From positions 1 through 54,057 of the IMG/VR virus record IMGVR_UViG_3300027986_000324: a stretch of 54,057 nucleotides of DNA, one strand, 5' to 3'. Origin of the DNA: a virus. Lineage: Duplodnaviria > Caudoviricetes. The position numbers were made by a program, and so were the translations under genes. Positions 32,655 through 46,080 of this stretch are shown one piece after another (the stretch's first letter is position 1; every line of letters begins with the position of its first letter). The notes beneath the pieces are model-generated. The model did no database searches, was not told where the DNA came from, and saw nothing but the letters and a program-made list of their open reading frames with translations.

Positions 32655-33413
32655 TTAGGTTTCAGACATCTGTATTCCCAAAAAGTCCTTGATCAACTCC
32701 GTCATGCCCTGCAACGGCGTGAAGGTGAGCAGGATCAGGCCGTTCGTGGTCATCGTCCGCATCAGGCATTCCACATAAATCGGCTTCGGGCACTCCTCAT
32801 CCAGCCAGATCACATGTTTCTCTGATCCCTGGAAACTCTCCCGGCCCTGCTCATAGCTCTTGAACGTCAGGACACTTTCGCCGCCGCTCGCGTGCTCCAC
32901 GTAGACCGTTTCCACCGCCTCGGGAACGCCTGGCTTGGACACGGACCGCAGAATCGAATCACCCGGCAGCATCCCGGTGCCATGATGGCCAGGCTTGCCC
33001 AGCAGCTTCGGCTGCAGAATTTCCTTGTGGACCGTCTTGCTCGTGTCGCCTGCCGCCCAGGCATCCACCGGATGCGTGAAGCGCCGCCCGTTCCACCAGG
33101 CCGGGTAGCGCCCCGTGAGGTGCAGCGTAAGCTCATATGCGCCCACGCCTTCTGTCTTGCCCACGCGATTGGCCGCCAGAAAGCAGCGCTCACGGTGCGT
33201 GACGCCCGCTGCGAAGAATTCCAGGTGCCGAGGATAGAGTTCCCGCCGCAGCGGCCCATGGTCCGGATAGAAGCTATCAATCCGGTTCTCAAGAGCCAGC
33301 CGCTCCATCTCCTCCAGCAGCTGCAGCGCCTCCTCCAACTCCTCCGGCTTCAGCAGCGCGAGATCGCGCTCGCTGAAGGAGTTCCACAAATCGATTCCTT
33401 GCGTCGGCGACAT
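32655..33413 (-). CDS. terL: terminase large subunit, N-terminal ATPase part
   Basis: Walker A AANRVGKT, FKSYEQGRESFQG, Walker B IWLDEE and coupling motif LTFTPL; stops shortly after. Confidence 0.92.
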   Translation of the reverse strand: MSPTQGIDLWNSFSERDLALLKPEELEEALQLLEEMERLALENRIDSFYPDHGPLRRELYPRHLEFFAAGVTHRERCFLAANRVGKTEGVGAYELTLHLTGRYPAWWNGRRFTHPVDAWAAGDTSKTVHKEILQPKLLGKPGHHGTGMLPGDSILRSVSKPGVPEAVETVYVEHASGGESVLTFKSYEQGRESFQGSEKHVIWLDEECPKPIYVECLMRTMTTNGLILLTFTPLQGMTELIKDFLGIQMSET

Positions 33414-33819
33414 TCTTGACCACCAAGGGCGCTTTCGCATCGCCCGAAATCTTCAACTGCTGCGCCGGCTTGCCCTCCACGCGATCCGCCATCACAGCAA
33501 ACGCCTTCGCTTCGCCACTGGCAAACAGCTCGCGCACCATCTTTTTGGCCAGCTCCGGATTCTCCACCAGGACTTCCAGAATCGCGTCCGTGAACGGCTT
33601 CAGCTTGCCGGACCGTCCATGCGGGTTCTTGACCTCGCCCGGCTTGATCTGAGTCGCCCGGCCCACCGCCGGATCGATGCCCTGGCCGAAGAACTTCTTC
33701 CCGCCGCCGTTGCCAGTTTTCCGCCCTTTCGATGGCGCAGCCGGACGGCCCTTATCCTTGCCCTTCCCCTTCCCTGCCGCCCACCGCTCCCTGCCCTTCC
33801 CCTTTTTGCCGGATGCCAT
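33289..33819 (-). CDS. terS: terminase small subunit (DUF5681-like)
   Basis: TQIKPGEVKNPHGR and DRVEGKP.Q motifs; overlaps the terL start. Confidence 0.8.
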   Translation of the reverse strand: MASGKKGKGRERWAAGKGKGKDKGRPAAPSKGRKTGNGGGKKFFGQGIDPAVGRATQIKPGEVKNPHGRSGKLKPFTDAILEVLVENPELAKKMVRELFASGEAKAFAVMADRVEGKPAQQLKISGDAKAPLVVKNVADARNRFVELLQRARSRAAEAGGVGGGAAAAGGDGAAGS

Positions 33820-34353
33820 CTACTTGCTCTCTGGAAACGGCAGAGTCTCCGGAAATGGCAGCTTCAGCGACTCGGTCACCGCCTTGGCGATGCCGACGAT
33901 GTCGCGCTTCCATAGGCCGTACAGCCGGATCTCCTCGGCAAACCCCTCGAAGTCATGCGGCAGGCTCACAGGCACTTCGTCTTCCATGCCAGCGTGCTTG
34001 AGTTCGTGAAACACCAGGGCTTCCATCTGCCAGTAATCCAGGGCGGAGTCGCGGCAGTTGTCCGCGCCAAACCAGATCACGAAATCCATGGCGGAAAAGT
34101 AACGCAGCAGCCCGGAAGGCCGTTGACATGTCCCCAGGATTACCTTGCCCTTTCGTGAGCCGCCCGAGGCCTTCCACAAGTACGCAATGTTGGCGTCCAC
34201 CAGAGGGGCAAGAGACGCGCGCGACTCAATGAGAGCCTTCGCGATCTTCTCGCAGCCCGAAGCCTGGATCCAGTCGCCCTGGACCTCGAAATCGTGCTTG
34301 CTGGGAACGGGAAACTTTGCGTCCGGATCGCCACCCAGAATTAACCGCTTCAT
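33820..34353 (-). CDS. putative phage metallopeptidase
   Basis: IAYLW, DFVIW, ALVFHELKH (HExxH) and HDFEGF..E.RLYGLW motifs. Confidence 0.85.
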   Translation of the reverse strand: MKRLILGGDPDAKFPVPSKHDFEVQGDWIQASGCEKIAKALIESRASLAPLVDANIAYLWKASGGSRKGKVILGTCQRPSGLLRYFSAMDFVIWFGADNCRDSALDYWQMEALVFHELKHAGMEDEVPVSLPHDFEGFAEEIRLYGLWKRDIVGIAKAVTESLKLPFPETLPFPESK

Positions 34354-34380
34354 CGTGTTTCACTCTCTCCTGACGTCTGG

Positions 34381-34415
34381 AAAAGTAAACGGAGGAAGCT
34401 GTGGCTTCCCCCGTC
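34381..34415 (-). terminator. possible intrinsic terminator
   Basis: ACGGGGAAGC-CACA-GCTTCCTCCGT followed by TTACTTTT. Confidence 0.45.
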
Positions 34416-34419
34416 CAGG

Positions 34420-34596
34420 TTATTTGTGCGTCGTAACGGCGGCCGCTGGCTTCCGTGCGCAGTGCTTCTTGCCGATGGTAGCCACCTTCATCACGACGCA
34501 GCCCGCTGGTTTGAGCACGTGCGTGTAGGTTTTCTCCCCAGCGTAGAGCGCACCCGCCAGCGCCGCAGCAGCCAGAATCGCGCCAGCCGGAGGCAC
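34420..34596 (-). CDS. small membrane-anchored protein (58 aa, not in ORF track)
   Basis: GTG overlaps the previous stop; AILAAAALAGALYAG then a basic tail with two Cys. Confidence 0.45.
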   Translation of the reverse strand: MPPAGAILAAAALAGALYAGEKTYTHVLKPAGCVVMKVATIGKKHCARKPAAAVTTHK

Positions 34597-35282
34597 TACT
34601 TGCCCCCTGTCATCGGGACCGGAACGCCCAGGACGTGCATCTTAGGCACGTTCACCTTGGCTTTCCCGAAGTCCTTGGAAATTTTCTGGTTATATTCCTT
34701 GGCGATTTGCCGCGCTGATTTGCCAGACGGTTTCTGCACAGGCGCGGGCTCTGTATGCTTGCCGCTCGTCTGCACAGCCAGGAAGTCCACGCCCGGCATG
34801 CCCACCCCGAAGAAGAGTTGAGCGGTGACCGGAGCCGGCGCGGAGTTTCTAATCAACAGGCCCACGTCCAGCAGAATCAGCTTCACTGAGGCAATCGCGG
34901 CAGCCACCGCAGCCGTGACCTTCGGATCGGCCACGCCCACCGCCGTCAGGATCGCGCTCAGATTCGTCTGAGCATCACTCAGCGACGCATTGATCTGGCC
35001 AAGCGCAGTCGCGGGCGCCGCTCCCAGGTTGGCCTTGTACTGGCCCACCAGGGACTCGATCAGCTTCAAATCCGCGCTCACCTTGCCCGCGTATTCCGTG
35101 ACCTGTTGGACGTAGGCCGCATTGCCAGGAGAAACGATGTTGACTACGCTGATGGCGATATCCGTCGCCACCGGCAAGTCAGCCAGGACTGTATCGATCA
35201 GCGACCCAGAGCATCCGACTTGGGGAACGCAAAGGCCGAAGATCAGCAGGAAGGACAGCAGAACAGAACCGAACGATTTCAT
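34596..35282 (-). CDS. lipoprotein, helical with hydrophobic C-terminal segment (lysis/envelope cluster)
   Basis: MKSFGSVLLSFLLIFGLCVPQVGC lipobox; GGAGG RBS. Confidence 0.75.
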   Translation of the reverse strand: MKSFGSVLLSFLLIFGLCVPQVGCSGSLIDTVLADLPVATDIAISVVNIVSPGNAAYVQQVTEYAGKVSADLKLIESLVGQYKANLGAAPATALGQINASLSDAQTNLSAILTAVGVADPKVTAAVAAAIASVKLILLDVGLLIRNSAPAPVTAQLFFGVGMPGVDFLAVQTSGKHTEPAPVQKPSGKSARQIAKEYNQKISKDFGKAKVNVPKMHVLGVPVPMTGGK

Positions 35283-35455
35283 TTCTTCTCCTCCATTCGT
35301 TGCTTCAGTTGGTCCACAATCGACTGCACATAATCGCCCGCCGAATCGACTACTTCCGGCGTGCTGAGCTTGATTGTGGTTTGCTTCTTGTTTTTGGTCA
35401 CCCCGTAGTAACGGTCCAGCGTGATGACCAGCGAGACATCCAGTGGCTCGCTCAC
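35279..35455 (-). CDS. hypothetical protein (58 aa, not in ORF track)
   Basis: GTGA and ATGA overlaps at both ends; MSEPLDVSLVITLDRYYG... Confidence 0.5.
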   Translation of the reverse strand: MSEPLDVSLVITLDRYYGVTKNKKQTTIKLSTPEVVDSAGDYVQSIVDQLKQRMEEKK

Positions 35456-35670
35456 ACTTTGCCTGCGTCCGGATCCACGGGGCCAGCCGGCAACTTAGTC
35501 GATGGCGCAGCATTCCAGGCCGTTTTAAAGTTCGCGGCGATAGCATGAAGGCTGCTGTACATCCAGCGATAGCCCTTGCCGTCTTTGCTGTCCGGTTCCG
35601 GCATGCCGCTGACCAGGCCGCTGAAGATGACCCAGCCGAAGAAAATCCAAAACCAGGGATCGTGTGGCAT
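35452..35670 (-). CDS. small membrane protein, holin-like
   Basis: WFWIFFGWVIFSGLVSGMPEP...YRWMY..LH..AAN. Confidence 0.6.
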   Translation of the reverse strand: MPHDPWFWIFFGWVIFSGLVSGMPEPDSKDGKGYRWMYSSLHAIAANFKTAWNAAPSTKLPAGPVDPDAGKV

Positions 35671-35671
35671 A

Positions 35672-35878
35672 TCAGTCCGCCCCCGCTCGACGCGCTCGGC
35701 TCAGCTCCTCGATCGGCGAGGGCTGAAATCCCTCTGGATAAATCACATGCCCGTTCACGTGACGGTGTGGCGGAAAATCCTTCAATACATCGAGGACCCT
35801 GTTTGCGGCAGATATCACCTTCCAGGCCGCGATGATCAGCGTCAACAGCTCGCTACCGTGCCACAGGTATTCGCTCAT
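35672..35878 (-). CDS. small single-TM protein, holin/antiholin-like
   Basis: MSEYLWHGSELLTLIIAAWKVI; GAGGGG RBS. Confidence 0.55.
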   Translation of the reverse strand: MSEYLWHGSELLTLIIAAWKVISAANRVLDVLKDFPPHRHVNGHVIYPEGFQPSPIEELSRARRAGAD

Positions 35879-35896
35879 TCTCTTCCCCTCGAAATT

Positions 35897-35922
35897 CAAA
35901 AGGCCGGAGGTTAATCCGGCCC
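35897..35922 (-). terminator. intrinsic terminator at the head of the late operon
   Basis: GGCCGGA-TTAACC-TCCGGCC followed by TTTTG. Confidence 0.65.
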
Positions 35923-35984
35923 GATGGCTCTGGCGATTTCTCCGCGACCCTCCATTCCTCACCGCGTCGCGTTAACGGTGAAAC

Positions 35985-36164
35985 TCAACCCCGATTCGGG
36001 CTGCTCTGCACATTGACCGGTGCGCCAGGCGGCAGCGCGTTCACGCGCCGATGGATGCCAGGCCGCGCCAGCTTGACGCCCTTGCGCGCGGCTTCCTTTT
36101 GCGCTGGACAGTTGCCCTTATGGCTCGCACTGAGCGGATGCCCGCAATCGCTGCAGAAGCGCAT
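35985..36164 (-). CDS. small Zn-ribbon-like protein (59 aa, not in ORF track)
   Basis: MRFCSDCGHPLSASHKGNCP; starts 3 nt after the upstream stop. Confidence 0.5.
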   Translation of the reverse strand: MRFCSDCGHPLSASHKGNCPAQKEAARKGVKLARPGIHRRVNALPPGAPVNVQSSPNRG

Positions 36165-36167
36165 CGG

Positions 36168-36635
36168 TTACCACCGGCTCGATCCGCTCGCGTTCTCTAC
36201 GCCCAGCGGTCCCACCCGCACGGCCTTGGTGTCCCCCACGAACGGCCACATCCGAATCTTCTGCTGCGCCCGCTCGATAAAGTCTTCCGTGGGCTGGCCC
36301 TGCCTCTCCAGCAGGTCCTTGGCTAAGGCGCTCAAACGCCCTGTCCTGGACCGTCCCATCGTGCCCGCGTTCGCTTCTACCTCGGTCCGCTTGATCGTGG
36401 CCGAAGAAGGTTTCAGCTTGCCGCCCTTCACCCGCCGGGCATAGGTTCCATAGGACGCGAAATGGTGGGAGATCAATTCAATCTCCCCGGTCAGTAGCAT
36501 GTCTGCGCGCTCGACCATGGAGAGATGCGCGTGAAGGCCCAGAGAACAATCCGGACGGATGTTGCGTCGAACCAGAGCCTCGTACTCGTCGCGGCTCAAT
36601 AAACAGGTTTTGCGGGGATTTTGGTTGCGGCTCAT
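36168..36635 (-). CDS. hypothetical basic protein, first gene of the late region
   Basis: 155-aa ORF; no family recognised. Confidence 0.6.
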   Translation of the reverse strand: MSRNQNPRKTCLLSRDEYEALVRRNIRPDCSLGLHAHLSMVERADMLLTGEIELISHHFASYGTYARRVKGGKLKPSSATIKRTEVEANAGTMGRSRTGRLSALAKDLLERQGQPTEDFIERAQQKIRMWPFVGDTKAVRVGPLGVENASGSSRW

Positions 36636-36903
36636 TTTGGGAATGCGCTGCCTATACGATTGAGGAGCGCCCAGTTATCGTCCGTGCGTCTGACGTGTTG
36701 CAATTGTCTTCCCTTCCCCTTGATTCGTGCGACCCTGCCTGTTTTGGCGAGGGCCGCACATTTTGCCCAGGTATAAGGAGAAGGTTGGATAGGATTATGG
36801 GGATTAAGGCCCTATACACTCAAGTTGCATTTTCGCAACCACTATAGATTGCGGCTACCTTCCGATAGTTTACAAACCAAACAAAACAAAGGTAATATAG
36901 TTG

Positions 36904-36932
36904 TTGACAAACCCAACTAACGGAGATACACT
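36904..36932 (+). promoter_or_regulatory. sigma70-type promoter
   Basis: TTGACA-17 nt-TACACT; downstream inverted repeat GCCGTT-ACC-AACGGC. Confidence 0.75.
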
Positions 36933-36969
36933 CCTAATCAAGCCGTTACCAACGGCAGGAGAATACAAA

Positions 36970-37815
36970 GTGAGAAACTTCAACAGCTTTTCCCGCAGCA
37001 GCAACCAACCCTTAACCCTCGACCAAATCGGCCAGCTCGCCCCGTCCGCTATCGCTATCACAGCGCACAGCAGCCGCTCAGACCGCTATGCCTACATCCC
37101 AACCCTGCAGATCATCCAAGGCATGGAGAAAGCAGGATTCCTGCCATTCTCCGCGAAGCAGTCCCGCACCCGCCTGGAAGATCGCCGCGACTTCACCAAG
37201 CACATGATTCGCTTCCGCCATGTCTCGCAGGAAGTACAGGTCGGCGGCTCTTTTCCCGAAGTCGTACTGATCAACTCTCACGATGGCACCAGCGCCTACA
37301 AACTGATGGCTGGAATCTTCCGCCTGGTGTGCAGTAATGGCCTGGTCGTCGCCAGCTCCATGCAGGACAGCATCACCGTCCGCCACCAGGGCAACATCAT
37401 CCAGGCCGTGGTCGAAGGCAGCACCCGCATTATCGAGGCCGCGCCCAAGATGCTGGACGCCGTAAACAACTGGACGGGCCTGATGTTGACGGCAGGCGAG
37501 CAGCAGGTATTTGCCGAGGCCGCTCACTCCATCCGCTTCGGCGACGAAGAAGGAAAGACCGACACACCCATCAAGCCTGCCCAGTTACTTCAGGCTCGCC
37601 GCACCTCTGACACCCGCAACGACCTGTACACCACCCTGAACCGCATACAGGAAAATGTCATCCGTGGCGGAGTTCGCGCCTTGGGGCACGATGCCGCTGG
37701 CCACCTTCGCCGCACTACCACCCGCGAAGTCAAGGGCATTGACCAGGACGTGAAACTGAATCGGGCTCTCTGGACGCTGGCCGAGAAGATGGCCCAAATC
37801 AAGAACGAAGCCTAA
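36970..37815 (+). CDS. DUF932/DUF945 family protein
   Basis: H.SRSDRY.YIPT, FTKHMIRFR, LINSHDGTSAY.L.AG.FRLVCSNGL and N.IQEN.IRGG motifs; AGGAG RBS then GTG. Confidence 0.92.
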   Translation: MRNFNSFSRSSNQPLTLDQIGQLAPSAIAITAHSSRSDRYAYIPTLQIIQGMEKAGFLPFSAKQSRTRLEDRRDFTKHMIRFRHVSQEVQVGGSFPEVVLINSHDGTSAYKLMAGIFRLVCSNGLVVASSMQDSITVRHQGNIIQAVVEGSTRIIEAAPKMLDAVNNWTGLMLTAGEQQVFAEAAHSIRFGDEEGKTDTPIKPAQLLQARRTSDTRNDLYTTLNRIQENVIRGGVRALGHDAAGHLRRTTTREVKGIDQDVKLNRALWTLAEKMAQIKNEA

Positions 37816-37816
37816 T

Positions 37817-37871
37817 CGCAGAGCACGGCCCGCAAGGGCCGTAATGCGGCAGGCCGGTTGCAAGCCCGGCC
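37817..37871 (+). ncRNA. twister self-cleaving ribozyme, type P5
   Basis: CGCA-GAGCA-[CGGCCC GCAA GGGCCG]-UAA-UGCG-GC-A-[GGCCGG UUGCAAGC CCGGCC]: P2, P1 and P4 stems, UAA cleavage loop, and both pseudoknot pairings (GC/GC; UGC/GCA). Confidence 0.85.
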
Positions 37872-37890
37872 AGAGAAGGCAGGAGGTTTT

Positions 37891-38196
37891 ATGACGTGCT
37901 TACGATCCAGGGATGCAGGGCAAACATGCAAGCAACTGGAAGAGCAGGGACTGAGTCCGGACGAATTGTGCGCAAATTGCGCCAACGACTTCCGCGCCGA
38001 CCTTGGACAGGCCGCCCTTGATGCATTCGCAGAAGCTTCGGGGACCAAGGATGACATGGGCTATACCGATGAAGTGCCGACGATCCTGACCGATTTACTG
38101 GCGGACCTCATGCACTATTGCCGTCGCGAAGGCCTGGAATTTGCGGCGATTATGCAGCAAGCCCAGGCGTACCACGCCGACGAAGTGGCGGCATGA
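37891..38196 (+). CDS. hypothetical protein
   Basis: AGGAGG RBS; LTDLLADLMHYC...G..F.....A...H..EV helical family. Confidence 0.75.
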   Translation: MTCLRSRDAGQTCKQLEEQGLSPDELCANCANDFRADLGQAALDAFAEASGTKDDMGYTDEVPTILTDLLADLMHYCRREGLEFAAIMQQAQAYHADEVAA

Positions 38197-38306
38197 TTTC
38201 GCATGGATTTAAACTGTTAATTCCGCCGCGCCCCAGTATTCCCGGGCAAGCGGGACGTCTCGGGTGGTACCGGGCAGGCCGGGCGTAAGACGGCCACAAA
38301 CTCGCC

Positions 38307-38498
38307 ATGAACAAACGTGAACGGGTGAAACGCGCAAGGACCGCAGGCCGGCAGACGAGTGCAGCCAAGACCAAGGCCGCCCGTGAGAACGGCAAGCGAG
38401 GAGGACGCCCAGGCAATCCCGAGACTGCCCGGATCATGGCAGAACGGGGCTGCACGCGGCAGATGGCGTCTATGGTTTTGCGTGGACTGCGGAAATAA
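38307..38498 (+). CDS. small basic DNA-binding protein
   Basis: TSAAK.KAARENGKRGGRP motif and a short HTH-like tail. Confidence 0.7.
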   Translation: MNKRERVKRARTAGRQTSAAKTKAARENGKRGGRPGNPETARIMAERGCTRQMASMVLRGLRK

Positions 38499-38715
38499 CT
38501 GGCAGGTCGAATTGCTGTGGCAGCACCTGGACCGTGCGCCGTCCCTTCCCCGGTCGGCGGATCATTCCTTCTGACTCCATCTTTTGCAGGTACTTGTTCA
38601 CCGCCTGGCGCGAGATGCCCAGCTGCTCCGCGATCTCCGCCTCGGAAGGCGAATTGCCGTCATTGCGGCCTTTGTATTCGCGAATGGCCTGGAGAATCTC
38701 AGAGCGCCGATCCAT
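38470..38715 (-). CDS. LexA-DBD-like winged HTH regulator
   Basis: ILQAIREY......SPSEAEIAEQLGISRQAVNKYLQKMESEGMIRR; GAGGAG RBS. Confidence 0.85.
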   Translation of the reverse strand: MDRRSEILQAIREYKGRNDGNSPSEAEIAEQLGISRQAVNKYLQKMESEGMIRRPGKGRRTVQVLPQQFDLPVISAVHAKP

Positions 38716-38917
38716 CGCCCCTCCTCACGATCTTGCCAAACTTCATCCACTCCGGAGGCCGGCAGCCGCCCTCGACCCAGTCCCTTCCCTGCTCGACGAA
38801 CCACGCGGCCAGTAGCAGTAAGCCGATTAGTGCGCTCAGCAGCAGGACCGCAATCGCCTGCAGCGCCTGGCCGCTCGTGTTCCATGCCTTTTCAAAATCG
38901 CCCTGCAGACGCTTCAT
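38699..38917 (-). CDS. small TM protein
   Basis: One hydrophobic segment; coupled to neighbours. Confidence 0.55.
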   Translation of the reverse strand: MKRLQGDFEKAWNTSGQALQAIAVLLLSALIGLLLLAAWFVEQGRDWVEGGCRPPEWMKFGKIVRRGDGSAL

Positions 38918-39474
38918 GCCATGCCTCCAAACAGTGCGATTTGCTCGCCCTCAATTTTCCCGACGTCTGGAACGGGCAGCTCTTCCAGTTCCACGGCCAC
39001 CGGGCGGCCGCCGTGCCCGTCATACACCCACTGGCAAAAGGCGATGATGCGCGCCGCGCTCGCATTCCGTACGCCGTCCCATTGCCCGAGGTAGCTTGGC
39101 CCGTCGCCCCGCTTGGCCGTGTGAAAACTCACTTGGCCTTGCGGGAGGTCCACATAGAGCACCCAGGAGTAGCCAGGTGTCTTTTCGTCCCAGCCCCAGC
39201 CCCATGGGATATACGATGTGCCCGAGGCCAGGCACAAGGCTCCCAGGCTCTTGTCCAGCTCGCGCAGTGCCCAGTTCTTTTTGTCGTAGGCCATCTGCCG
39301 ATAGGAACCCTGCCCCCGGATCCCGCCGCGGTATTGCTTCGCCCGTTCGGAACACTTGCCAGCGCGGAAGAGATGTTCCGCGACCACGCCCAGCATCCCT
39401 TTCTGGCGCAGGGCTTCGTAGAAGGCGGCTGTGGCCTCGCCGTTCGAACCCTGGTAGATAGATTCGGCGTTCAT
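38914..39474 (-). CDS. conserved phage hypothetical protein
   Basis: LFRA.K.S.RAK.YRG...AYDKK and WVLYVDLP.GQVSFH...Y.GQWDG motifs. Confidence 0.75.
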   Translation of the reverse strand: MNAESIYQGSNGEATAAFYEALRQKGMLGVVAEHLFRAGKCSERAKQYRGGIRGQGSYRQMAYDKKNWALRELDKSLGALCLASGTSYIPWGWGWDEKTPGYSWVLYVDLPQGQVSFHTAKRGDGPSYLGQWDGVRNASAARIIAFCQWVYDGHGGRPVAVELEELPVPDVGKIEGEQIALFGGMA

Positions 39475-39480
39475 GATGGC

Positions 39481-39819
39481 TTATTCCCCCATCCCTTCAA
39501 ACGTGACAATATGATCCCGCCGCAGTTTGCCGCGCTTCTGCCCACTCCTCTTGCGCTGTACCGTGACGTTCCGAATCAGGATGGTTCCGGGCAAGCATCG
39601 CGTTTGAACACTCAGCCCTAGGCGACGGGAATAGGTTTTGATCGTCTTCCGTTTGACCTCGGTGGAGACGTCTGTAAACCTGATTTTGACAATCTCCTCT
39701 TCGCCGCTCTTGAGGTAATTGAGGGCCTGCCATATGTCCAAGTGCTTGGCGGCTTCCGCTTTCTGCCACTCTTGAAGCGTTGCGCTTTCGAATAAACGTT
39801 GCGGCTGGTTCGGGATCAT
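39481..39819 (-). CDS. hypothetical basic protein
   Basis: ORF in the operon, ATGA-type overlap with the ACP-like gene. Confidence 0.55.
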   Translation of the reverse strand: MIPNQPQRLFESATLQEWQKAEAAKHLDIWQALNYLKSGEEEIVKIRFTDVSTEVKRKTIKTYSRRLGLSVQTRCLPGTILIRNVTVQRKRSGQKRGKLRRDHIVTFEGMGE

Positions 39820-40079
39820 CGCGGAACTCCCTTCAGCCGCCACTTCAGGTAGTGGATGATGGCACCCACGTCCTTCAGGCTGCCGCGCTGGGCCAGAGTC
39901 ACCGCAATGTCAAATTCCTCTTCAATCCTGCGCCACACGTACGACTCGCTGCCTGGATCCGCCCCCAGTTGCGACAAGGATTGATCGGAGTAAATCTCAT
40001 CCACTCCTATCGCCAGTGCCTCGGCAATGATTTCGCGCATTTTCAGATCGAGATTGACAACTACTGGCTGTTCAGGCAC
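39816..40079 (-). CDS. acyl carrier protein-like protein lacking the canonical DSL serine
   Basis: REIIAEAL....DEI.....L..LGAD(PG)S......IEEEFDI.V......LKDVG..I.Y. Confidence 0.8.
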   Translation of the reverse strand: MPEQPVVVNLDLKMREIIAEALAIGVDEIYSDQSLSQLGADPGSESYVWRRIEEEFDIAVTLAQRGSLKDVGAIIHYLKWRLKGVPR

Positions 40080-41061
40080 GCCGCCTCCAGTCCTTCGCGC
40101 CCCGGACCTCCACGATCCGGCACATACCCTCCAAACGCGAATGCACCCGTTCCCCTACCCGCTCCCGGAGACTCTCGACGCGCATCGCCCGCTGGGCTGC
40201 GCTCTGCGGCATCGCCGCCGTGTCCCAGGGCAGATTGGTGGTCACAATGGTGGACCGCCGATGGCTGTAGCGCTGGTCGATCACGTAATACAGCATCGAG
40301 CGGTTCCAGTCCGTCAGTTTTTCCGGCCCGATGTCGTCGATCACCAGCACATCCGCTTCACAGATGTCGCTCACCAGGTCATAGGCAGTTGCCGCATTTC
40401 CGTCGTCGTCTTCGATCTGTCCGCTCACGCTCGTAAACGTTCCCTGCAATTGCTGCAGCAACGCCGAATAGGAGCGAAACAGCGCCCGCGCGCCCTTGTG
40501 TTCAATCAGCATCCGCAACAGCGCCGCCGCCAGGTGCGTCTTGCCGCCGCCCGTGGGCCCCCAGAACAGCAGCCCAGGCCTTTCGAGCTTCGGCCACTCC
40601 TGTACATATCGCCCCGCCGACATGCGCGCCATCTCCAGGGATCCATTGCCGGCGCAGAGATAATTCTCGAGCGTAGTGCCCCGAAACTCTTCCGGAAGTC
40701 CAGCCATCCGCAACAGAGATTTGGCGCGGCGCGCCTTCCAGCACTCGCATCGCGCCGCGACCCGCTTGCCGTTCTCGAGGCGCATCACAAATCCACTCGG
40801 ATCATCCCGGCAGACCGCGCACTCGTAAACCACTGCGTCCGCGGGCTCCGCTGCAGCCAGCTCTCTCTGCGCCTCGGCCAGCTCGGCCTTCATCTGCTCT
40901 TTCAACAGTTCCCCGGCCTGCCTCATGCCCGCCGGCAGCGCAGCTCTGCGCGTGACCGGGCTCAGAGCATTGCCGTCTTCCGCAACTCCATGCTCACGCC
41001 GGCGCTGTCTCAGCAGCTCTTGCATCTGCTGGACCTGCTCGGCTGTGAGTGCTTGGGTCAT
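40072..41061 (-). CDS. DnaC/IstB-like helicase loader ATPase
   Basis: CAVC...CEC Zn site, GPTGGGKTHLA, LVIDDIG, TIVTTN and RVHSRL..MC motifs. Confidence 0.92.
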   Translation of the reverse strand: MTQALTAEQVQQMQELLRQRRREHGVAEDGNALSPVTRRAALPAGMRQAGELLKEQMKAELAEAQRELAAAEPADAVVYECAVCRDDPSGFVMRLENGKRVAARCECWKARRAKSLLRMAGLPEEFRGTTLENYLCAGNGSLEMARMSAGRYVQEWPKLERPGLLFWGPTGGGKTHLAAALLRMLIEHKGARALFRSYSALLQQLQGTFTSVSGQIEDDDGNAATAYDLVSDICEADVLVIDDIGPEKLTDWNRSMLYYVIDQRYSHRRSTIVTTNLPWDTAAMPQSAAQRAMRVESLRERVGERVHSRLEGMCRIVEVRGAKDWRRRA

Positions 41062-41963
41062 TTCGTGGCACCCAATTCGAGTTGCTGTTCTACCTTGTCC
41101 CCGCTCCCCAGGATGAGCTGCTGTCCGATCAGGTCCACATTCGGGTCGTCAGGGGTCTCATGCTTCAGGATCCGGATGAGCGCGCTCTTTGGTGTGCCCG
41201 ATCGCTCCGCCGCAATCGCCGCCAGATGAGCCCAGACCCTGCCAGGCATCTCCACCGCTTCCGGGTTGCGGCGCTGCCAGTCCTTCTCCTCGAGCTCCAT
41301 CTTGGACCGCCACCGGCTGTAGTGGATTCCATCGGAGGTGGTAAGTTCTTTGCGCTTCGCGCGAGAGTGTCCGTTTTTTCTCTCTCCCGCTTCTTCTTGT
41401 ACTTCCTCTAAGCTCCTGGTACTTCTTACTTCCTTATATGCACTGTCATTTGGTGACAGTGCCGTGCTTTTGGTGACACTGCCACTGTCACCTTGTGAAT
41501 CGGCAGTCTCACTTGGTGACGTTCCAGTGTCACGAACTGACGCCGGGTCACTTTTCGTGCCACTGTCATCTGGTGACACTCCAGCGTCACTTGGTGATGG
41601 TGAGTCCTCGGCGGATGCCGGGTCGTCTTGAGGCTGGAGGACCAGGCGATAGAACAGACGGGGAGGCCGATGGTCCGTTTTCGTGACCTTCAGCCAGCCC
41701 CGGTCTTCCAATTCCGCCTGTCCGTTCTTAATGCCGTTGCGGCTCAAACCGCAGCCTGAGTCCTTCCGTCTGCCGGTCTTCTCGTTGACAATGCCGTGCA
41801 GCAGCTCGTCATAGGTCAGCTCCGGAAAAGCTTCCCCGAACCGGGTATGCTTGAGGATGTAGGCCAACAGCTTGAGCCCTGCCTCTTTCAGCCCCTTCTC
41901 AGCGTCAAAGGCCTCCAGCGGCATCGGCACGAACGGGAAATTGATTTTGATTCCCTTGGCCAT
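41058..41963 (-). CDS. replication initiator (lambda O-like position)
   Basis: N-terminal wHTH (GCGLSRNGI......LE.RGWL), low-complexity linker with iterons; upstream of the DnaC-like gene. Confidence 0.8.
   Translation of the reverse strand: MAKGIKINFPFVPMPLEAFDAEKGLKEAGLKLLAYILKHTRFGEAFPELTYDELLHGIVNEKTGRRKDSGCGLSRNGIKNGQAELEDRGWLKVTKTDHRPPRLFYRLVLQPQDDPASAEDSPSPSDAGVSPDDSGTKSDPASVRDTGTSPSETADSQGDSGSVTKSTALSPNDSAYKEVRSTRSLEEVQEEAGERKNGHSRAKRKELTTSDGIHYSRWRSKMELEEKDWQRRNPEAVEMPGRVWAHLAAIAAERSGTPKSALIRILKHETPDDPNVDLIGQQLILGSGDKVEQQLELGATK
41441..41605. repeat. replication origin iterons inside the initiator gene
   Basis: CACTGTCA-TTTGG-TGACAGTG at 41441 and several GTCA-N5-TGA(C) variants up to ~41600. 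Confidence 0.75.
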
Positions 41964-42193
41964 CAGGCCACGACGGTCACGTTCTCGGCCTTTAGACCCT
42001 TCGCCCCGTGGACCAGGTCAAACTGTACCTGCGCCCCTTCGTTGAGCGTCCGATAGCCGTCCATCCGGATATCGCTGTGGTGGACGAAGACGTCCCCGCG
42101 CTCCGGATGGGTGATGAAGCCGTAGCCCTTGGAACCGTTGAACCACTTCACCGAGCCCTGGTGGCGCTCGCTATTTCCGTTTCCGTTTTGCAT
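41963..42193 (-). CDS. csp: cold-shock domain protein
   Basis: [35 protein letters not shown] and [10 protein letters not shown]. Confidence 0.95.
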
Positions 42194-44288
42194 TCGCTTT
42201 TCTCTCCTTCTTCGGTTGTTTACCGCTGTCGCCGGCTTTATCCTTCGCCAGCTTTTCCTTTTCCGCCTTGCTCTTAGGCCGCTTCTTTTCGAGCAGCGCC
42301 TCGGCATCCGCCAGCAGCTTAGCGGTGTCGATCTTGTAGGTTGCGGCAATGGTCGCCAGAGGCGAGGACTTCGGCAGCGAGGTGTTGTAGTAGAACTCCT
42401 CCAGGCCCATTTCCGGCTCCAAGGCGCAGATCACCAGCATCTTCATCAGATCTCCCGCCTTGAGTGTTTTCGCGAACCGCTTCAGCGGCGAGCTATCGAA
42501 TCCCGCCGTGCCTTTGATGTCATAGACGCGCTGGACCTTGGCCTGGTCGCGATGGTCCATCTTGCTCAATATCCAATCGAGCACGATAGGTGCGTCCTTT
42601 GCGCTCAGTTCGTCGGGCAGCTTGGGTACCAGAGCCTTCACTACGCTGTTGCGAAAAACGAACTGTACCCGCTGTTTCCATATCTCCACACGCCGCTCGA
42701 AGCTAACCGGCGCATGCCCGCTGCCGCCGCCCGAACTGTAGGAAGACCTGTAACTATGCTGCTGGCAGTTCTCCTCGACGCAGATGTCCACAATCTGGCC
42801 GATCTTCTTGCCATCCACGTAAATGGCCCTCTGCGTCAGCTTGCACTTGGGTTTTGCCAGTTCGTAAGCGCCCGGATGGAGCACGCCAGGCTCTGGCTTA
42901 TCGCCCCAGTGCAAGTGGTCTTCGCTGATCTTCTGCACTGAGGGCGCCTGCGCGGCTTTCCCCTTGTCCGCTTTCTTCCCTTCCGTCTTCACCGGCTCTG
43001 GAATCTGCATCACATCGCGCACCGCGACAATCAGATCCTTGCCTTTCAGATCTGGATTGCCCTTCGGCGCGTCCTTGAACCAAACGGCAGGACCAGGGCC
43101 GCCCTTATAGCTCACGTTCGCCGAGGCACCCTCTATGCCGAACTCCTCCCGGACCCGCTCCATGACCTGATCGTTCGTCGCGCCACTCTTGCGCAGTTTG
43201 TCCCATGCGCCACCGGAAGCGTGCAGTACGAATTGCAGGCGTTCCCGCTGAGCGTCCGTCAACCCCGTGGACGGCAGCTCCGGCGCCGGCGCGGCAACCT
43301 TGGCCTCTTCCTTGATCCGGATCTGGATAAAGGCGTCCTTCTTGGCTCCGTAGCAAGTAGGATCGGTGCAGGTGTCGCCTCTCTTGACGTCTGCAAAAAG
43401 GCTGGGATTGCTTCCGGTGCGCTTCGGGCAATTGGTGCAGGCCCCTGCGCCTTTGACCAGCTCCGCATCCTTGGTGTCGAACGGCGCTTTCGATAGGTCG
43501 ATGTGGATGTGGCTGGCAATCCAGGCACGCAGCCGCTTTACGCTCACAGACGCTTCGGCGGTCGGGTCCTTCATGACCTGCGCCAGGGCCTTGTATTCCT
43601 TGTCGCTGTCGTAGTCGCGCTCCGCTGCGCCGCCAAAGCACTCCAGAAACACCTGTTCCTGCTCTTTCGGCTGCAGGCGGCAAATCTCTGTTGCATGGCT
43701 GGCATGGATCTTCCCGGCAAAAAACGCCTCCTGGATCGGCGGCAGCAATTGCGCCAACTGCATCCGGGCATAGACGTGGCTCAGCGACTTTTTGGCCACC
43801 GTCTCCGCGATGTACTCGACGGTGCGGCCTTTGTCCAGCAGGACCTTGTACCCGAGTCCCTCTTCCAGGGGATGAACATCTTCGCGCTGGCCGTTCTCGA
43901 CGATCATCAGTTCCAAAGCCGTGTCGTCATCCAGGTCACGGATCTTGCAGGTCAGAGTCTCCATCTTCACCAGCTTGGAGGCACGCCACCGGCGCTCACC
44001 AAACACCAGCTGGTAATACTGGTCGCCCACTGCCGTGCCTTTCGGCAGCAGCTTCAGGTCCTCTTTCGTGGCAAACCGTGGACGCACCAGCGCATCCTGG
44101 ATCACGCCCCCGGTTTTCAGGATGGACGCGCCCAGCTCCGCCAGGCCCTCATCGCGGAACGTCTTCCTCGGATTCAAGGGAGACGGGAGGATTATGTCCA
44201 GTGGAATTTCCATGTTGCCCCGGTTGGCGGCGGCTGAAACTACGGCATCCGGCGCGCTGGCCGGCTGGGTCGGTACCTCGGTGTTCAT
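42171..44288 (-). CDS. parB: ParB/RepB/Spo0J family protein, long form
   Basis: [34 protein letters not shown] and C..CPKRTG...C.D..C. Confidence 0.92.
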
Positions 44289-44302
44289 CTAGTTCTCCTC
44301 TG

Positions 44303-44686
44303 TCATAGAAATTTGTGAACCACGTAGCAGGCCAGGAGCAGCAACGCGCCCCAGGCCAGCGGAAAGATTGCGGGTCTTGCGAAATTCCGGCGCGGCCTGG
44401 TCTTGGCTTCCGCGCGGATCGTTCCCTTTTGCGGATTGATTACCAGGGCCGTCCCGTTCTCTATCGCCTGGATCACATCGTCACGCTTCAGCCATTGGAG
44501 CGAGGCTTGAAAAGACTCTTGCGAAATCCCCACAGGCAAGATGCCCTCTTCCATCGGCCACTGGGATCGAGGGCAAAGCCGCGCCTGTTCCAGACGTCTG
44601 TGATTCAGCCACTCCGGGGAATGGAGATATTCGTCCATCTCTTTGAGGTACCGTGGCGGAATTTCAAAGCGTCGCTTCTGCCCCAT
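44303..44686 (-). CDS. hypothetical protein with C-terminal TM
   Basis: GGAG RBS before MGQKRRF; C-terminal hydrophobic segment. Confidence 0.55.
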   Translation of the reverse strand: MGQKRRFEIPPRYLKEMDEYLHSPEWLNHRRLEQARLCPRSQWPMEEGILPVGISQESFQASLQWLKRDDVIQAIENGTALVINPQKGTIRAEAKTRPRRNFARPAIFPLAWGALLLLACYVVHKFL

Positions 44687-44910
44687 GGCTCTATACTCCA
44701 AATTGGTTTTCGTACTGCGCGGGGTCCCAGCCTTCCTCGCCGATCCGCATCTGCTTCGGGTCCTCGGCCTCTTTCGGTTCCAGCCCCCTGCGCCGCTCTT
44801 CGTCCTTGCGGGCCATCGAGGGATGCACATGCGGGACGATCGATCCATCCGGGAAGCGCGGTCCCTCGGCACACGTGCAGGCCGTGAGCAGCTCCACCCG
44901 CCGAAAGGCG

Positions 44911-45183
44911 CTAGGCGGATCGGGCTGCCTTGCTTCCGTTCTTCGCTTTGTCCGCTTTCCTGGCATCGTCCTCTTTCAGCCAATCGCTTGCGGCCTGAAA
45001 GGCCGGCACGTAGCCGCTGCCGATCCCGCGATAGAGCGCTTCACGCATCAGCTTCGGCAACCGGTGATAGTCCGGCCCGCAGAACGACCAGCGCGGCTGC
45101 TTCTTCTTCCCGCAGTGGGGGCACACGGGCGAGTAAAACGACGCAATCGCGTCTATCGGTTTCGGTTGCGTCGCTTCGCTCAT
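44911..45183 (-). CDS. small Zn-finger-like protein
   Basis: CPHCG......SFC..DY..LP. Confidence 0.65.
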   Translation of the reverse strand: MSEATQPKPIDAIASFYSPVCPHCGKKKQPRWSFCGPDYHRLPKLMREALYRGIGSGYVPAFQAASDWLKEDDARKADKAKNGSKAARSA

Positions 45184-45392
45184 TTCCGCTCCCCCAATTC
45201 CACGGCTCCCAGTTGGTCGAGGGCCAGCCGCACCCGGTTTTCAAATCGGGCGAGATCTTGCGCTGCGTCCTCGGCTCGTCCCGCCAGGGCGTGCTCGGCG
45301 TAGTACTCGGCCCACTTCCTGGCATCGGAAAGAAAATCCTCAGCCAGACCGACAAGCCTGCAATTGCGCTCCATTCGTGCGGTCGCGCTCAT
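45180..45392 (-). CDS. hypothetical helical protein
   Basis: ATGA overlaps at both ends. Confidence 0.6.
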   Translation of the reverse strand: MSATARMERNCRLVGLAEDFLSDARKWAEYYAEHALAGRAEDAAQDLARFENRVRLALDQLGAVELGERK

Positions 45393-45586
45393 CGCTCTAA
45401 AGTCCGGTAGACCGTGGTCTTCCCGATCCCAAGCAGCGCCGCCGCAAGCACCTTGTCGCCCTTGGTGAGTACTAGCGCGCGTTCCACTTCGCGCCGTTTG
45501 GTTTCAATCAGAGGCCGGATCTTGAATCTCTTCCGTAGTTCCTCCAATTGGCTGCGGGTGGACTGTTTCTTGTTTGTGGTTTTCAT
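45389..45586 (-). CDS. Fis-like HTH protein
   Basis: VERALVLTKGDKVLAAALLGIGKTTVYR; AAGGAG RBS. Confidence 0.85.
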   Translation of the reverse strand: MKTTNKKQSTRSQLEELRKRFKIRPLIETKRREVERALVLTKGDKVLAAALLGIGKTTVYRTLER

Positions 45587-45621
45587 GGCTTCTCCTTTTT
45601 TGACCTGGATTGAATTCGCTC

Positions 45622-45864
45622 TTACGCTGCCTTCCCCTCAGCTCGTTTTCCCAGCCCATGTGCGGCAAAAATGTGCCGTTGCCACTGCTGGTAGTTGTGA
45701 AAACTGACGAGGTGGATCTCGCCCGGCTTCAATTGCCGCTGCACGATGCAGTAGCGGCACGCCGCTTTTTGAACTAGATTCTTCCCGAACATCACCAGAA
45801 GCGGAGAGCGCCAGGCGATGTCGGGAAACGTCATTTGCAATTCGTGTTCATTCATAAAAATCAC
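45622..45864 (-). CDS. hypothetical protein (C..C...H...H)
   Basis: ACRYC and WQRHIFAAH; GAGGAG RBS. Confidence 0.6.
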   Translation of the reverse strand: MIFMNEHELQMTFPDIAWRSPLLVMFGKNLVQKAACRYCIVQRQLKPGEIHLVSFHNYQQWQRHIFAAHGLGKRAEGKAA

Positions 45865-46080
45865 TCCTCAGAGCCTGGCCAGCGGAGCGTCCATGCTTGT
45901 GCGATTCAATGGGTCGCACAAACCGTGTCTACGTCTCCGCCGGCCAGCTCCTCTCCCGTCTCCCTTTCGGATCATCGCTTGCCTATCCAGCCGCTAAACC
46001 AGGTTCAGCTCGCTCCCCGGGGAAACCCTGTCAAAGGAGGACTGAAACCAGGGCCTCTCCAGAGACGGGAAAAACGATTG

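Follow-up and report, generated by a model that had tools for sequence, protein, structure and literature searches.

A type-P5 twister ribozyme directly downstream of a DUF932 gene in an Acidobacteriota provirus

What kind of RNA occupies the short interval between a DUF932 gene and the next gene of an Acidobacteriota provirus, and what would it do to the messages of the two genes that it separates? The window (the whole 54,057-nucleotide stretch of DNA analysed here) is an entire IMG/VR record classed as a provirus, the complete provirus of an Acidobacteriota MAG, and an earlier note, made from the letters of the window alone, had proposed a type-P5 twister ribozyme at 37817–37871. That twisters form a class, with three permutations and two pseudoknots, is established (PMC5408937), and the reviews credit the description of the class to Roth et al. 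2014 (PMC5408937, PMC6765202).

All 4227 Rfam families were searched against both strands of the whole window, which gave a single match at gathering level: Twister-P5 (RF02684) at 37817–37869 on the + strand, covering the model from end to end (positions 1–58 of 58) at 56.9 bits against a gathering score of 37.6 (E = 2.9e-9), and the best-scoring family of clan CL00120 at this position. The earlier note had named a covariance-model search as the way to check its assignment to the type-P5 twisters; that search, with a full-model match well above threshold, supports the assignment. As RF02684 matched none of 14 control genomes and the E-value is as low as 2.9e-9, a chance match was rejected. 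When the operon (33000–46000) was searched with permissive filters, Twister-P5 was the sole match at E ≤ 1, and no hammerhead appeared there.

In the Rfam alignment, the window ribozyme agrees with the consensus at 27 of the 29 positions given in upper case as highly conserved, and the two departures (G to A at model position 9, nucleotide 37825, and C to U at model position 48, nucleotide 37859) pair with each other. Bar these two partners in pseudoknot T1, the conserved nucleotides of L1, the P1–P2 junction, L2 and L4 are present. The MFE fold of the 55 nt at 37817–37871 consists of exactly P2, P1 and P4 (−31.6 kcal/mol, z = −3.25, with none of 200 shuffles as good), and both the alignment and the fold give the P5-permuted helix order (P2, P1, P4) with P1 and P4 each closed by a loop. 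A reading of 37800–37900 places every element that the earlier note had listed where Table 1 gives it. The stretch 37817–37871 (+) is a type-P5 twister, and a textbook-quality match. It shares with the known members of RF02684 (clan CL00120) the order of elements, the conserved nucleotides, the two pseudoknots, the U–A dinucleotide and a location near phage genes, and nothing structural sets it apart from them; its host is an Acidobacteriota provirus. A standard Rfam scan finds the ribozyme, and it should be annotated as Twister-P5.

A P5 stem that joins the ends is optional in the Twister-P5 family. A candidate for it, a 4-bp GCCU/AGGC pairing, appears only in the predicted MFE fold of 37800–37900, and would fit the P5 permutation.

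Table 1. Coordinates of the ribozyme elements and flanking features in the window
Feature	Position	Strand	Details
Upstream gene, DUF932 protein	36901..37815	+	304 aa from first TTG (start putative); PF06067, phrog_12094
Possible P5, 5′ strand GCCU	37810-37813	+	would pair with AGGC 37877-37880; includes first base of the stop codon
P2, 5′ strand CGCA	37817-37820	+	pairs with 37845-37848; Rfam alignment, MFE fold
L1 strand GAGCA	37821-37825	+	GCA 37823-37825 is the T1 5′ half; Rfam alignment, covariation
P1 hairpin CGGCCC-GCAA-GGGCCG	37826-37841	+	strands 37826-37831/37836-37841, loop GCAA 37832-37835
UAA junction	37842-37844	+	Rfam model 30-32; predicted scissile phosphate between U37842 and A37843
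P2, 3′ strand UGCG	37845-37848	+	Rfam alignment, MFE fold
GC, T2 5′ half	37849-37850	+	pairs with G37864, C37865
P4 hairpin GGCCGG/CCGGCC	37852-37871	+	strands 37852-37857/37866-37871; Rfam alignment, MFE fold, covariation
Loop L4 UUGCAAGC	37858-37865	+	UGC 37859-37861 is the T1 3′ half; GC 37864-37865 is the T2 3′ half
Possible P5, 3′ strand AGGC	37877-37880	+	directly 5′ of the Shine-Dalgarno; predicted in the 101-nt MFE fold
Shine-Dalgarno-like AGGAGG of downstream gene	37881-37886	+	sequence reading
Downstream gene, 101 aa	37891..38196	+	start ATG 37891; phrog_3963 (unknown function), E 2.2e-10

The scissile bond of twister ribozymes is the U–A (N–A) step in the junction adjoining P1, and its A is highly conserved (PMC5408937). 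In the window, U37842 and A37843 lie directly 3′ of P1 by the Rfam alignment and by reading of the sequence, and the bond between them, which had been named as the cleavage site, agrees with the published definition. The AGGAGG of the downstream gene follows 38 nt after A37843, close to the roughly 40 nt first estimated for the distance to the next ribosome-binding site. Cleavage at U37842/A37843 is predicted to leave a 2′,3′-cyclic phosphate on one product and a 5′-OH on the other.

Two pseudoknots can be read in the window ribozyme: T1, made of G37823–C37861, C37824–G37860 and A37825–U37859, and T2, made of G37849–C37865 and C37850–G37864. The GCA/UGC of T1 had been taken for a compensatory variant. 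Phage twister-P5 sequences (at least 117 stretches) were gathered from IMG/VR with a conserved-core pattern derived from the window ribozyme itself. A strict motif filter that demanded all four closing P1 pairs retained only 17 sequences; it was replaced by a filter on P1/P4 pairing and then by our own covariance model, built from seven gap-free examples (the window among them) and containing P1, P2 and P4 only, with T1 and T2 left out. Searched against 87 sources, this model gave 99 matches at E ≤ 0.001, corresponding to 89 distinct rows, and pairs were counted on the 89-row alignment using the structure with T1 and T2 added as pseudoknots.

Standard pairs fill 94.6% of the cells in this alignment, compared with a shuffle mean of 71.0% (none of 500 shuffles was as high), and when the partner columns are shifted by 1–3 positions as a control only 30–42% of cells are paired. 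Changes on both sides occur in 18 of the 21 pairs. Although both pseudoknots lay outside the search model, T1 is paired in 98.1% of cells over the 89 distinct rows, with all three of its pairs covarying, and T2 is paired in 100%; the P2 pairs are 91.7–100% paired over the same rows. The middle pair of T1 is U–A in 55 rows, G–C in 16, C–G (that of the window) in 8, A–U in 3 and U–G in 2, and the inner pair is G–C in 69, A–U (again that of the window) in 13, C–G in 2 and G–U in 2, so that, ranked by frequency among the 89 rows, the middle pair of the window comes third and its inner pair second. In a motif-based count, both variable T1 pairs are standard in 52 of 52 distinct sequences (shuffle mean 32.8, maximum 39). 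As T1 covaries and the pairs of the window are among its common variants, GCA/UGC is compensatory, as the earlier note had supposed, and represents ordinary variation within the family; set against the Rfam consensus (G–C/g–c/G–C), the T1 of the window (G–C/C–G/A–U) lies within natural covariation and entails no structural difference. The P1 pair beside the active site, C–G in the window, is unpaired in 50 of the 89 rows.

The ribozyme is intercistronic, and both flanking genes lie with it on the + strand. The upstream gene product matches Pfam family PF06067 over residues 55–291 (E = 1.3e-43) as well as phrog_12094 (E = 5.6e-94), and a Candidatus Angelobacter sp. MAG contains a stretch with 100% identity to the gene. 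With its TAA stop codon at 37813–37815, the ribozyme begins at C37817, confirming the start 2 nt past the DUF932 stop that had been described, and it ends 21 nt 5′ of the next start codon. The downstream 101-aa ORF has no Pfam match. The ribozyme sits in a block of + strand ORFs (35443–41229) between minus-strand structural and replication modules; the minus strand encodes portal, major head, scaffold and head-closure proteins, and the provirus also encodes ParB-like, replication-initiator-like, exonuclease and Sak4-like proteins. Among the ORFs scanned in the + strand block, DUF932 is the only one with a Pfam family, and the other ORFs tested there yielded one PHROG only, the phrog_3963 of unknown function in Table 1.

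On the + strand, no terminator-like site was found between the DUF932 stop (37815) and the next start (37891). P4 is followed by AGAGAAGG, and there is no U-run after either hairpin; the reading of the element as an intrinsic terminator was rejected on both counts, and, as no U-run follows the hairpins, the downstream genes can still be transcribed.

The placement of phage twister-P5 copies was compared among the matches listed, of which the P1/P4 pairing filter retained 58 of 88; as the pattern was taken from the core of the window ribozyme and only the matches listed were used, the figures describe a biased subset. Among these matches, 50 of the 58 copies have an ORF of 50 aa or more whose end lies just upstream; between its stop and the ribozyme, 29 of the 50 have a gap of ≤2 nt, 13 one of 3–9 nt and 8 one of ≥10 nt (median 1). 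Downstream, 47 of the 58 copies listed have a start preceded by a Shine-Dalgarno sequence; the median distance is 26 nt, and in 44 of the 47 it does not exceed 50 nt. With the first ribozyme base 0–2 nt past the stop, as in 29 of the 50 copies among the matches listed, a ribosome terminating there would lie over P2, L1 and some of P1. The folding of the ribozyme may possibly be coupled to translation termination in this way; the tight spacing from stop to ribozyme could also simply reflect the compactness of phage genomes.

The 50 upstream ORFs among the matches listed are diverse, with only nine Pfam families represented and one member of each, including AcrIC5, the S-adenosylmethionine lyase family, an ArdC-like metallopeptidase domain and the DUF932 of the window, at one locus each. 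A specific association of the twister with DUF932 was rejected, as just one of these 50 ORFs, that of the window itself, belongs to that family. With AcrIC5, S-adenosylmethionine lyase, ArdC-like and DUF932 genes represented, there is a hint that anti-defence or early accessory genes are common among those next to the ribozyme.

Arrays of Twister-P5 copies were also seen, with six copies in L052, five each in L066, L098 and L120, and three each in L064 and L119. Those of five or six copies span L052:2681–5407, L066:530–4438, L098:49–1992 and L120:5713–8093. Within these four arrays the copies share one strand, at spacings between a few hundred nt and about 1.2 kb, and each lies between small ORFs; they look like ribozyme-punctuated operons. 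The stop-adjacency figures, the sharing of a site after one orthologous gene and the arrays may already be contained in Roth 2014 or Weinberg 2015.

The site that follows the stop codon was compared across 26 viral loci with DUF932 homologues (35–66% identity) and seven other genome loci. Directly after the stop, Twister-P5 is found above threshold in three of the 26 viral loci (L009, 44.5 bits; L010, 54.6 bits; L011, 53.7 bits) and Hammerhead_II in one (L019:3929–3996, 62.3 bits). Below threshold, Hammerhead_II matches follow the DUF932 stop at L003:3858–3917 (33 bits, E = 0.0079) and, in an Acidobacteriales MAG, at L029:2349–2410 (a full-length, weak match of 20.9 bits, E = 0.032 in a 181-nt search). 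All three of these type II hammerheads start at the DUF932 stop codon, that is, at the site of the window twister, and in the hammerhead alignment, L019 included, a GCAA-capped hairpin directly precedes the conserved GUC. No known ribozyme family was found at E ≤ 1 at the post-stop site of the remaining DUF932 loci. The DUF932 gene does not need a ribozyme, as none exceeds the Rfam threshold at this site in 22 of the 26 viral loci. In 13 of 19 distinct ribozyme-free loci the first 50 nt have an unusually stable fold (z < −2, mononucleotide shuffles), and in four ribozyme-free loci (L018, L020, L024 and L026) a T-run, judged by eye, follows the hairpin.

The neighbourhood of the gene varies as well. 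When five neighbouring ORFs of the window were compared by tblastn (E ≤ 1e-3) with the 33 other DUF932 loci, none had a homologue there, while DUF932 itself gave 34 hit lines across them; a conserved gene pair was therefore rejected, and the ribozyme sits at a mosaic junction. Mapped on a DUF932 tree, the twister label requires three changes, at least two of them forced by well-supported branches. The backbone of this tree leaves 11 of its 24 inner branches open, the rows of L010 and L034 contain stops or frame problems, and the clustering of the twister label cannot be told from random (48 of 500 shuffles were as low). A single origin of the twister at the DUF932 site is not supported, though on a poorly resolved tree.

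What the ribozyme does is probably, and we hold this with moderate confidence, to cut a two-gene provirus RNA, uncoupling the decay and translation of the co-oriented accessory cistrons. The two genes would be transcribed as one RNA, in which the ribozyme would fold into P2, P1 and P4, with T1 (GCA/UGC) and T2 (GC/GC) locking the helices together, and the RNA would cut itself between U37842 and A37843. The DUF932 message would then keep a 27-nt 3′ tail, composed of the GC-rich, GCAA-capped P1 hairpin and a U carrying the 2′,3′-cyclic phosphate, and the downstream message would begin with a 5′-OH and would carry the P4 hairpin 9 nt, and its Shine-Dalgarno 38 nt, further on. The polymerase would proceed, and the cistrons would become separate molecules with hairpin-protected ends, so that their decay and translation would be uncoupled. 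We infer cleavage in vivo, a transcript shared by both genes and an effect of cleavage on expression; the comparative data, drawn from sequence, fit this hypothesis.

The ribozyme could instead be active for the sake of the downstream gene only, with the fate of the DUF932 message incidental. The one bacterial self-cleaving ribozyme known to have a settled role is that of glmS, whose cleavage destabilises the mRNA, and the downstream message of the window could likewise be marked for decay by its 5′-OH, as the glmS product is reported to be; alternatively, cleavage could free the ribosome-binding site for better translation. The parallel is that self-cleavage in an mRNA leaves a 5′-OH product whose fate sets expression (partly from PMC6765202). 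The glmS ribozyme, however, is a 5′ UTR element that depends on a metabolite cofactor, while the window twister stands between two cistrons and shows nothing to suggest a ligand-binding domain. Control of the downstream gene would suit a cleavage site only 38 nt 5′ of AGGAGG (37881–37886), a predicted P5 whose 3′ strand would abut the Shine-Dalgarno, and a start codon no more than 50 nt away in 44 of the 47 copies with a detectable downstream start among the matches listed; self-cleavage alone can, moreover, switch on translation in eukaryotic RNA viruses (2026, PMC13725137). However, the most constant feature of the copies among the matches listed is their adjacency to the upstream stop, with a median gap of 1 nt, which ties the element to the upstream gene, and the orthologous DUF932 sites carry plain or terminator-like hairpins, which act on an upstream 3′ end. 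The MFE fold is also predicted to leave the Shine-Dalgarno unburied by the ribozyme. We therefore regard a purpose confined to the downstream gene as unlikely.

Still less probable, in our judgement, is that the ribozyme is mainly the boundary element of a mobile gene cassette, carried along with small accessory genes and persisting by hitch-hiking or by helping modules to be exchanged, with little benefit for expression. The mosaic junction, with its five neighbouring ORFs that lack homologues in the 33 other DUF932 loci, is of the kind that such an element would mark, as are the three label changes on the DUF932 tree (two of them forced by well-supported branches) and the arrays of five or six copies that flank single small ORFs in L052, L066, L098 and L120; the identities of flanked genes are likewise described as "not constant" for prophage hammerheads (PMC3088659). 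Nevertheless, the catalytic core is under strong purifying selection and all of the helices show compensatory changes, which argues for a selected activity, and a tree with 11 of 24 inner branches open, on which the clustering of the label is not distinguishable from random, weakens the case for exchange. That the element is an inactive relic or a look-alike, its GC hairpins acting as passive structure (a transcriptional pause, an attenuator or a barrier to RNase), appears very improbable. Many computationally predicted ribozymes did not cleave in assays (PMC8782182), and ribozyme-free homologous loci make do with hairpins; here, however, every conserved core position is intact or compensated, both pseudoknots can form, the score exceeds the family threshold by 19 bits, and a passive role as terminator or the like finds neither a U-run 3′ of either hairpin nor a terminator-like site at the locus.

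The uncoupling of cistrons by self-cleavage has precedents in the literature. Type II hammerheads (RF02276) were reported in prophages by Perreault et al. 2011 (PMC3088659), where multiple hammerheads flank single accessory genes, including the anti-restriction gene ardA, and where it was proposed that long phage transcripts are processed into mRNAs of one gene each. The same proposal is repeated for twisters in a 2019 review, which also notes that twisters and hammerheads have gene neighbourhoods in common near phage genes and describes as undetermined what role the thousands of self-cleaving ribozymes of bacteria and phages play (PMC6765202); among the later papers on function that were listed, none settles the role of self-cleaving ribozymes in phages. 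The class, its phage context and the idea of transcript processing are thus already published, and the window adds a member in a known type of context and leaves the general question of the role of phage ribozymes unchanged.

Type II hammerheads are a close known counterpart by position, as they occupy the site of the window twister after DUF932 homologues (L019, and below threshold L003 and L029). They are likewise permuted, with a hairpin immediately 5′ of the cut, whereas their fold and catalytic core are unrelated to those of the twister. Intrinsic terminators and 3′ stabiliser hairpins, as seen at the ribozyme-free DUF932 loci, similarly place a GC-rich hairpin a few nt past the stop; the difference is that in the window the 3′ end would come from self-cleavage of the RNA and not from release by the polymerase. 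The P1-capped twister product, the hairpin of the L019 hammerhead and the plain hairpins of relatives, taken together, suggested to us a role in giving the upstream gene a protected 3′ end with transcription continuing.

A broader and more tentative reading, to which we give somewhat less than even weight, is that Twister-P5, type II hammerheads and plain hairpins are interchangeable "3′-end modules" of phage accessory genes, chopping operons into pieces. If so, both ribozyme permutations would furnish the new 3′ end with a stable hairpin, within 1–2 nt of the cut, and the modules, beginning at the stop codon (median gap 1 nt), would give a terminator-like protected 3′ end without halting the polymerase. 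Five or six repeats within a few kb, as in L052, L066, L098 and L120, would then produce single-gene, hairpin-capped messages, and some such operons may be anti-defence because the flanked genes include AcrIC5, SAM lyase, ArdC-like and DUF932 genes. DUF932 orthologues that carry a twister, a hammerhead, or a plain or terminator-like hairpin at the same position to the nucleotide provide a clean natural experiment.

Several other structured stretches were noted at the DUF932 loci. Long GC-rich ones lie directly after the gene at L006:3799–3880 (identical to L007), L008:3811–3910 and L021:1731–1800 (identical to L022 and L023); none of these post-stop stretches matched an Rfam family at E ≤ 1, and by the logic of shared gene context the stretches of L006, L008 and L021 are candidate sites for unrecognised processing elements. 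At L002:3811–3866 and L004:3919–3976, a common UUGCUACUG is followed by a hairpin of 8–11 bp and then by AGA(A/G)UGGAG just before the next start. Elsewhere at these loci, a sub-threshold Proteo-phage-1 RNA was seen at L021:3591–3693 (39.8 bits; threshold 42), and a sub-threshold Hammerhead_3 (30.4 bits; threshold 48.5) at L033:340–396, about 1.1 kb upstream of the DUF932 gene.
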